64,000 nucleotides of DNA from Escherichia coli (GTDB taxonomy: Bacteria; Pseudomonadota; Gammaproteobacteria; Enterobacterales; Enterobacteriaceae), in assembly GCF_024502345.1 (NCBI RefSeq), contig NZ_JALDNN010000001.1; one strand, 5' to 3'. The notes beneath the pieces are model-generated. The model ran no database searches. It was not told the origin of the DNA and saw only the letters and a list, made by a program, of their open reading frames with translations. Numbering within the stretch: position 1 is the stretch's first letter; every line of letters starts with the position of its first letter. The translations under genes were made by a program, and so were the position numbers. Of the stretch, positions 58,502-59,284 are shown piece after piece.

Positions 58502-58537
58502 AGGGCGCGCATATTAACTTTGTAACGTCATAGAGTC

Positions 58538-58706
58538 AAAGAAAAAGGCAGCCTGTGGTTGCCTTTTGCCAATAATTCGCACACATTGCGGGTTACTGCT
58601 TTATTTTCGTTCAGTGCTGATAACGAACATCAACCTGCAAAACGAAGCGCATAGTTTAAAATGGCTATCATCAATACGCTATATCTGATGGAAAAAAATA
58701 TGCCTA
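58538..58706 (-). ncRNA. sraB: Candidate small RNA SraB (boundaries approximate)
   Basis: Hairpin aaggca-gcctgtggt-tgcctt (58545-58565) followed on the reverse strand by UUUUUC, in the yceF-yceD intergenic region where SraB lies in K-12 as remembered. Ends and strand are inferred. Confidence 0.45.
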
Positions 58707-59284
58707 AACTTATTTTAGCCTCCACCTCGCCATGGCGTCGCGCTCTTCTGGAAAAACTGCAAATCTCTTTTGAATGTGCAGCACCAGAGGTCGACGAAAC
58801 CCCACGCAGCGACGAATCACCGCGACAGTTGGTGCTTCGACTGGCACAAGAAAAAGCGCAATCTCTGGCGTCACGTTATCCGGATCATTTAATTATTGGT
58901 TCAGACCAGGTATGTGTTCTTGATGGCGAAATCACCGGTAAACCGTTAACGGAAGAAAATGCCCGTCTGCAATTACGCAAAACCAGCGGCAATATCGTCA
59001 CCTTCTATACTGGACTGGCGTTGTTTAATTCGGCGAATGGGCATCTACAAACAGAAGTGGAGCCTTTTGACGTCCATTTCCGTCACCTGAGCGAGGCGGA
59101 GATTGATAATTACGTGCGTAAGGAGCATCCCCTGCACTGCGCGGGTAGCTTTAAGAGTGAAGGATTTGGCATTACGCTGTTTGAGCGTTTAGAGGGACGT
59201 GACCCTAACACGCTGGTTGGTTTACCGCTAATCGCGCTGTGTCAGATGTTACGTCGGGAAGGGAAAAACCCGCTGATGGGATAG
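58700..59284 (+). CDS. yceF: Maf-like nucleotide pyrophosphatase YceF
   Basis: ATG at 58700 gives [25 protein letters not shown]..., 194 aa; the track ORF is extended upstream. Confidence 0.9.

Follow-up and report, generated by a model that had tools for sequence, protein, structure and literature searches.

SraB has been part of the Escherichia coli K-12 annotation and of Rfam since the small RNA (sRNA) screens of 2001, and it is a standard ProQ ligand in biochemistry. The curated gene of MG1655, sraB (b4418), occupies NC_000913.3 1146589..1146757 between yceF and yceD, on the strand of yceD. In the literature K-12 SraB appears as a discrete transcript on Northern blots, the K-12 sequence being different in one loop base from the gene described here. 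A re-analysis of two dRNA-seq data sets (Thomason 2015; Ettwiller 2016) found the dominant sraB transcription start site (TSS) 60 nt downstream of the annotated 5' end (PMC7967276). According to the same study Argaman 2001 likewise saw a product of ~105 nt, and Salmonella SL1344 uses the corresponding sraB start.

Studies on the binding of SraB by ProQ found the K-12 RNA to be highly enriched in ProQ co-immunoprecipitation and to form a 1:1 complex with the protein, and HDX and SAXS data on the association have been published too (PMC5393179). The N-terminal (FinO) domain of ProQ gel-shifts SraB, not GlmZ, and SraB touches the linker and the C-terminal domain of the protein too (PMC5393179). 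For binding by the FinO domain a ligand must carry a terminator stem of 2 bp or more and, after it, a run of 4 U or more (PMC7367173). The same work found ProQ ligands to be enriched in A over the last four positions before the stem; these bases pair with the tail and make the RNA less suited to Hfq.

Like the RNAs of the ProQ/FinO class (the cspE 3' UTR, the malM 3' UTR, SibB and FinP), SraB is highly structured and has published ProQ binding, obtained with the K-12 sequence, and A-U pairing of an A-rich 5' flank with the U tail lengthens the base of its terminator, with a short single-stranded tail remaining. It is longer than the 3' UTR ligands of ProQ and differs from them also in its contacts with the linker and the C-terminal domain, and unlike the Sib RNAs and FinP it is without a demonstrated antisense target. 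With the Hfq class I sRNAs such as RyhB and MicF it shares an intergenic position, a promoter of its own, a Rho-independent terminator and some reported association with Hfq, but the flank 5' of its terminator is A-rich, not U-rich, and most of its U tail is paired. A further parallel is offered by the oxyS/oxyR and micC/ompN pairs, where, as at sraB, an alternative distal promoter of the divergent neighbour gives a leader complementary to the sRNA. The sraB locus departs from both pairs in that the proximal promoters of sraB and yceF stand back-to-back with common -10 bases, and in that the sraB terminator abuts the -35 of a third promoter, that of the leaderless yceD.

Identity of the locus

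The window is the whole stretch of E. coli DNA that was analysed, 64,000 nucleotides in length. A search against all Rfam families matched its positions 58538..58706, minus strand, to SraB (RF00077) with 209.8 bits against a gathering score of 130. The match runs from 58706 to 58538 over model positions 1-169 of 169, untruncated and with zero insertions or deletions, at E = 6.8e-44 for the whole 64-kb window and 5.3e-45 in a 5-kb search; a full-length match at the former value is far beyond chance. Alignment of the minus strand to sraB of MG1655 gave identity at 168 of 169 positions, with both ends equal and the flanks identical. The sole differing base is window position 58625, in the loop of hairpin 2, which is C here and U in K-12. 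A first-pass annotation of this DNA had suggested the K-12 sRNA SraB as a candidate in the yceF-yceD spacer and had named an Rfam covariance-model scan and an alignment to the annotated MG1655 gene as ways of checking it, and both searches bear the proposal out. The span it gave, 58502..58710, is that of the whole spacer, the gene proper (169 nt as annotated in K-12; synonyms pke20, psrA4 and PsrD) being confined to 58538..58706.

The surroundings are those of K-12, as both the open reading frames and the K-12 annotation indicate. On the minus strand yceD (57980..58501) encodes a DUF177 protein, the 23S rRNA accumulation protein, and is the first gene of yceD-rpmF. On the plus strand yceF (58700..59284 with the K-12 start; K-12 annotation 1146011..1146595) encodes a Maf-family m7GTP pyrophosphatase, and its first 7 nt overlap the annotated 5' end of SraB. 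The orientation proposed at first sight, divergent from yceF and upstream of yceD on its strand, was thus correct, and E. albertii, Salmonella and Citrobacter have sraB in the same setting between yceF and yceD. In locus, strand, ends and four-hairpin structure with terminator the gene is the same as K-12 SraB (RF00077).

Within the species the locus is nearly universal. Of 5426 complete E. coli genomes 5424 contained the 311-nt spacer used as query, 5315 of them at 99% identity or more. A 61-nt query covering hairpin 2 was at least 99% identical to the window in 3734 E. coli genomes and 95-99% identical in a further 1598, a range that takes in the K-12 allele with its one mismatch (98.4%); the allele of the window (58625 C) is the commoner one among E. 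coli genomes. The warning that the gene is easily missed was well founded, as PGAP RefSeq genomes with a 100% identical spacer annotate yceF and yceD alone there.

We conclude, with a probability of about 0.9, that the locus is the known sRNA gene sraB, independently transcribed and non-coding, on the minus strand of the yceF-yceD spacer. The finding is therefore already known and ordinary.

Start and length of the transcript

The K-12 start sites given in Supplementary Table S1 of PMC7967276 (sraB 1146649; yceF 1146625 and 1146700) map in the window to 58646 on the minus strand for sraB and to 58670 and 58595 on the plus strand for yceF. The short form of SraB that begins at the RNA-seq start thus covers 58538..58646, minus strand, and measures 109 nt. 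A transcript of about 170 nt had been anticipated; this agrees with the annotated 169-nt form, but not with the main start in published RNA-seq, which lies 60 nt further in.

Each of the two starts has a -10-like hexamer upstream of it. The internal one, TAAACT (58653..58658, minus strand), was recognised from alignments and from its spacing to the TSS; it ends 7 nt before 58646, is followed by a G+C-rich discriminator, ATGCGC, and was invariant in 15 of 15 Enterobacterales spacers in one alignment (A2) and in 14 of 14 in another (A5). Its best -35 candidate, TAGCGT with a 17-nt spacer, is poor. Upstream of the annotated 169-nt 5' end, within codons 5-6 of yceF, lies TAAAAT (58712..58717, minus strand), which in alignment A5 was found in E. 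coli and E. albertii only, with AAGGAT in Salmonella, AAGTAT or AAGAAT in Citrobacter and GAGGAT in Klebsiella. Judged from these alignments the conserved sraB promoter is the internal one, since TAAACT is invariant and the TAAAAT of the annotated start is restricted to Escherichia. The main, evolutionarily conserved SraB transcript is probably the 109-nt RNA 58646..58538.

Structure of the RNA and its terminator

A minimum free energy (MFE) fold of the window sequence produced the same four hairpins as the Rfam structure line. Hairpin 1 (RNA positions 18-40; 58667..58689, minus strand), drawn by both, lies upstream of the RNA-seq TSS and belongs to the 169-nt form only. Hairpin 2 (positions 61-101; 58606..58646) and hairpin 3 (positions 111-135; 58572..58596), the latter with an inner stem CGCA/UGCG, follow the Rfam structure and are likewise on the minus strand. 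The RNA closes with an intrinsic terminator at 58538..58567, minus strand, which is supported by an inverted repeat, by the fold and by Rfam: a stem of AAAA and GGCA..UGCC with UUUU at 58543..58567, then the tail UCUUU at 58538..58542. The inverted repeat has 11-nt arms (58543-58553 and 58557-58567) that are 91% complementary and 3 nt apart, and the strand reads AAAAGGCAACCACAGGCUGCCUUUU and then UCUUU, ending at 58538. It is a Rho-independent terminator, an inverted repeat (58543-58567) that folds and is then followed by UUUUUCUUU. The hairpin with a U-tract on the reverse strand that was first noticed at 58545..58565 is therefore real, those limits lying 2 nt inside the repeat on each side. 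Its reported distance of 37 bp from the yceD start also stands, there being 37 positions from the RNA 3' end at 58538 to the A of the ATG at 58501, or 36 nt before the start codon.

A generic promoter and terminator scan left the SraB terminator and both sraB promoters unflagged. The terminator escaped because counting the A-U pairs as stem leaves 4 T in the 8-base tail window and because its loop of 9 nt is above the 8-nt limit, and the promoters because their -35 hexamers are poor. The miss is a result of the rules of the scan, not of a weak hairpin.

Thermodynamic stability was unremarkable and was left out as evidence; the folding z-score of the whole RNA against shuffles was a modest -1.92 for the 169-nt form and ranged from -2.1 to +0.3 for 3' cores. 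The short form was also compared among five species, two of Citrobacter together with E. coli, E. albertii and Salmonella. When the Rfam structure was scored on their alignment 94.4% of cells were paired, as against 33-44% when the 3' partners were slid by 1-3 columns. Four pairs had changed on both sides in a compensatory manner, all of them in hairpin 2. The whole test has to be read with the caveat that the five sequences are related and that the structure tested derives from a family model built on such sequences.

Promoters of yceF and yceD

The block that contains the sraB -10, CATTTTAAACT, also contains a -10 of yceF and is essentially invariant across the 15 spacers. Read on the plus strand it is AGTTTAAAAT, in which TAAAAT (58657..58662, plus strand) is the -10-like hexamer of the proximal yceF promoter and ends 7 nt before its TSS at 58670, as mapped from K-12 1146625. 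The sraB -10 (58658..58653) and this hexamer (58657..58662) are back-to-back and have 2 bp in common, and because of this arrangement the two promoters probably cannot be occupied simultaneously.

The distal yceF TSS (58595; K-12 1146700) falls inside sraB and gives a 5' UTR of 105 nt (58595..58699, plus strand). Over the first 52 nt of short SraB, which hold hairpin 2, this long leader runs antisense to the RNA, and in the case of the 169-nt form it does so over 112 nt. A candidate distal promoter can be drawn as TTGCCT (58559-58564), a 17-nt spacer and CACATT (58582-58587). The idea of an antisense interaction is weakened by the published transcription data, in which yceF transcription is barely detectable (PMC7967276), and by the distal TSS itself, which was present in only one of two data sets and unconfirmed in the Thomason set (PMC7967276).

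[quoted passage not shown] The block is near-invariant in the 15 genera, and its -35 has two positions in common with SraB, the final two U of the tail. Upstream of yceD there is no Shine-Dalgarno sequence, the -10 ending 9 nt before the ATG, and yceD has been described as a gene without a 5' non-coding leader (PMC4378010). This conserved promoter after the SraB tail, together with the leaderless start of yceD, makes SraB a separate transcription unit and not the leader of yceD.

Distribution across the Enterobacterales

The yceF-yceD spacers of 15 Enterobacterales were gathered through YceD homologues and then aligned (A2; A5). A search of genome contigs with the pattern CCCGCNATGTGNGCGAA (15 specified bases) was less productive, nearly all of the matches listed being due to chance and the useful loci among them being those of E. 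albertii and two Citrobacter. Full-length RF00077 matches above the gathering score came from Escherichia, Salmonella and Citrobacter only (150.6-209.8 bits). Below it were matches of ~112 nt (36-78 bits) in Enterobacter, Kluyvera, two Klebsiella species, Cronobacter, Buttiauxella, Erwinia, Pectobacterium and one further record, and these extend to both ends of the model.

A block of 56 nt at about 58592..58647 comprises hairpin 2, the linker that follows it and the outer arm of hairpin 3. In alignment A2 it was found in Escherichia, Salmonella and Citrobacter only and was absent from 10 other genera, among them those with the shorter matches and Rahnella. The simplest reading is that the block was inserted in the ancestor of Escherichia, Salmonella and Citrobacter, as near and distant outgroups are both without it. 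The hairpin 2 block is single-copy in all 5424 E. coli genomes, and a dispersed repeat or mobile element was ruled out on the ground of exactly one copy per genome.

Common to all genera is a core of ~53 nt downstream of the conserved -10, made up of the CGCA/UGCG stem inside hairpin 3, the linker GAAUNAUUGG and the terminator. When 13 orthologous 3' cores were folded singly, 12 gave hairpin 3 with the terminator and nothing else. Inside the terminator stem the pairs vary by genus (CA/UG in E. coli, UG/CG in Cronobacter, UGGUG/CACUG in Pectobacterium), and in hairpin 3 an A-U pair has become U-A in Pectobacterium and Rahnella.

Protein partners and regulation

The terminator of SraB, 58538..58567, is a predicted ProQ-binding module. 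Its 8-bp stem, AAAAGGCA/UGCCUUUU with an inner CC/GG, is followed after the G+C-rich part by UUUUUCUUU, in line with the stem and U run required by the FinO domain. Immediately before the G+C stem stand the 10 nt AUUGGCAAAA, with A at each of positions 7-10, and all 13 orthologues have AAA or more in front of the terminator stem. SraB lacks the features of an Hfq class I RNA, in which an unpaired U-rich stretch precedes the terminator and a long U tail is left free; its AAAA flank pairs with four U of the tail. SraB is nevertheless not strictly a ProQ-only RNA, because links with Hfq have been reported: SraB was down 4.5-fold in a Klebsiella hfq mutant (PMC3136514), and in E. coli Hfq cross-links to SraB, the association not tracking SraB abundance (bioRxiv 10.1101/481986).

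In Salmonella SraB was repressed >4-fold by ppGpp (PMC3963941), which the G+C-rich discriminator ATGCGC after TAAACT would fit. An E. coli DNA-damage study listed it as ~5-fold induced (PMC11228462), and a phenotype in egg-albumen resistance has been cited for SraB of Salmonella Enteritidis.

In the proposed mechanism the FinO domain of ProQ would grip SraB at the foot of its terminator and at its short U tail, and pairing of the AAAA flank with part of the tail would disfavour Hfq. ProQ would stabilise SraB and may assist its pairing with other RNAs. The sole partner that can be read from the sequence would be the long yceF leader from 58595, whose sequence complements hairpin 2 perfectly. 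The regulatory step is one that we infer, as no SraB target or E. coli phenotype was found in the literature searched, and the suggested mode of action is base pairing with ProQ, possibly as an antisense to the long yceF leader.

Alternative explanations

SraB might act mainly in cis, as an antisense to the long yceF leader and through a promoter that excludes the proximal yceF promoter, with any activity in trans being secondary. The geometry of the locus lends itself to this, since the distal yceF TSS at 58595 inside sraB makes the leader fully complementary to 52 nt of short SraB, the 169-nt form as annotated even covers the start codon of yceF, and the -10s of sraB and yceF overlap by 2 bp within an invariant block. 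ProQ also binds cis-antisense RNAs, e.g. SibB (PMC7367173), and SraB has been classed as an 'overlapped ncRNA', with yceF transcription weak and SraB abundant (PMC7967276). The overlap through hairpin 2, however, is missing in most Enterobacterales although the promoter block and the 3' core are kept, and so antisense pairing is not the conserved function. With the distal TSS unconfirmed in the Thomason data set and no regulatory effect of SraB on yceF reported in the literature, we regard a mainly cis-acting SraB as possible but unlikely. A decidedly unlikely explanation is that the RNA is a functionless by-product and that what has been conserved is an architecture of the DNA, in which back-to-back promoters and a terminator shield the strong, stringently controlled yceD-rpmF promoter from upstream transcription. 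It is true that the most invariant positions are promoter-like hexamers (TAAACT/TAAAAT, TTGACT and TAATAT) and the discriminator before yceD, that the terminator tail overlaps the yceD -35, that outside the Escherichia-Salmonella-Citrobacter clade the core would amount to ~53 nt only, and that SraB is without a known target. Yet hairpin 3 and the linker GAAUNAUUGG are conserved though they are not promoter elements, compensatory changes keep the terminator stem paired, and hairpin 2 has kept its structure while its sequence diverged; SraB is, moreover, abundant and specifically bound by ProQ, and the egg-albumen phenotype is cited in Salmonella Enteritidis.

The position of SraB directly upstream of yceD on the same strand, and its repression by ppGpp in the manner of a ribosomal-protein operon, could also suggest an attenuated or processed fragment of the 5' leader of the yceD-rpmF operon. 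This is very improbable, and was rejected, given the near-invariant TTGACT-17-TAATAT between the terminator and the ATG and a yceD that is described as leaderless and has no Shine-Dalgarno sequence; SraB, for its part, has a primary dRNA-seq TSS and a strong terminator of its own. That the transcript encodes a small protein is scarcely credible. Short ATG-initiated frames of 13, 13 and 9 aa and a 16-aa frame do occur in the E. coli RNA, but none of them has a Shine-Dalgarno sequence. MFVISTERK, the only one contained entirely in the short form, is not found in Salmonella or Citrobacter, and the 16-aa frame has its ATG in the loop of hairpin 3 and its stop beyond the 3' end of the RNA. The likeness among frames of 13-47 aa follows from the conserved promoter DNA, and their lengths vary by species. 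A small protein was ruled out because there is neither a conserved open reading frame nor a Shine-Dalgarno sequence, and the reading of the locus as the independently transcribed, non-coding gene sraB is retained.

A wider proposal can be made about what selection has maintained at sraB, though it is speculative and as a whole rather unlikely to hold. The conserved unit would be a compact three-promoter module with a two-hairpin RNA of ~53 nt (hairpin 3 and a ProQ-type terminator), not the 169-nt RNA. In it the sraB -10 would be fused back-to-back with that of yceF and the terminator tail would lie over the -35 of an rrn-like, leaderless yceD-rpmF promoter, and the expression of yceF and yceD-rpmF would be tied in cis to growth rate and ppGpp through the transcription of sraB and the binding of ProQ. 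Hairpin 2 would then have been inserted later, in Escherichia, Salmonella and Citrobacter, and have brought an antisense potential against the long yceF leader.

Implications

As a discovery sraB matters little. For annotation it carries a practical message, in that pipelines relying on PGAP RefSeq records will miss the gene, since such records omit it even where the spacer is identical, and in that the 169 nt given in databases are probably too long for the main transcript (109 nt). A modest addition to what was known is that the conserved promoter matches the short RNA-seq form, that hairpin 2 appears to be a lineage-specific insertion and that sraB is wedged between a common back-to-back -10 block and the promoter of a leaderless yceD. 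The invariant internal -10, the clade-specific hairpin 2, the core found throughout the Enterobacterales and the terminator fused to the leaderless yceD promoter provide added context for the search for a function of SraB.

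Occurrence of the spacer and neighbouring RNA elements

A search of E. coli genomes with the yceF-yceD spacer (window 58450..58760) as query placed 5 of 5425 matching places on plasmid-labelled records, and two complete genomes gave no match to this query. Among the Enterobacterales loci compared, one (L123; AP025685.1, GCA_022846635.1) is labelled Salmonella enterica serovar Choleraesuis. Unlike L129, a genuine Salmonella locus, it has a spacer that lacks hairpin 2 of the SraB RNA and in which hairpin 3 is disrupted; its YceD is just 86% identical to that of E. coli. The organism name given for the record seems questionable.

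Elsewhere in the window, rne5 (RF00040), the autoregulatory element of the RNase E 5' UTR, was matched over its full length at 60567..60903 (+) with 260.1 bits, where the gathering score is 180. Its position upstream of rne is normal for this region of E. coli, as expected. REP-type palindromes between yceF and rluC (59292..59364, both strands) matched naRNA4 (RF02564) at 54.5 bits, slightly under the gathering score of 59.5, and a further such palindrome at 39477..39553 (-) exceeded it with 65 bits.

Conserved blocks and gene starts

The start of yceF was set by the mechanical ORF list at an in-frame upstream ATG at 58661 (+), giving 207 aa, and in K-12 and RefSeq it is at 58700 (+), giving 194 aa. 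The resulting extension (58661..58699, +) begins upstream of the proximal yceF transcription start at 58670. As the reverse complement of this ATG, CAT, belongs to the invariant promoter block CATTTTAAACT, its conservation would be explicable without a start-codon role and need not be a sign of one. A second near-invariant block, TATAGCG on the reverse strand and CGCTATA on the forward (58676..58682), sits within the short yceF leader and precedes the sraB -10 element by 17-18 nt. It matches a -35 element poorly (TAGCGT) and may serve in place of one, bind a factor, or be an element of the yceF leader.

Across the spacers of 15 Enterobacterales genera the promoter-like block of yceD, TTGACT-17-TAATAT-GCGCGCCCT-ATG (58499..58539, -), is near-invariant. 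The discriminator is similar to that of rrnB P1. A Shine-Dalgarno sequence is absent, which together with a -10 element ending 9 nt before the ATG implies that the yceD mRNA would be leaderless or nearly leaderless. yceD has previously been named as a gene without a 5' leader (PMC4378010).
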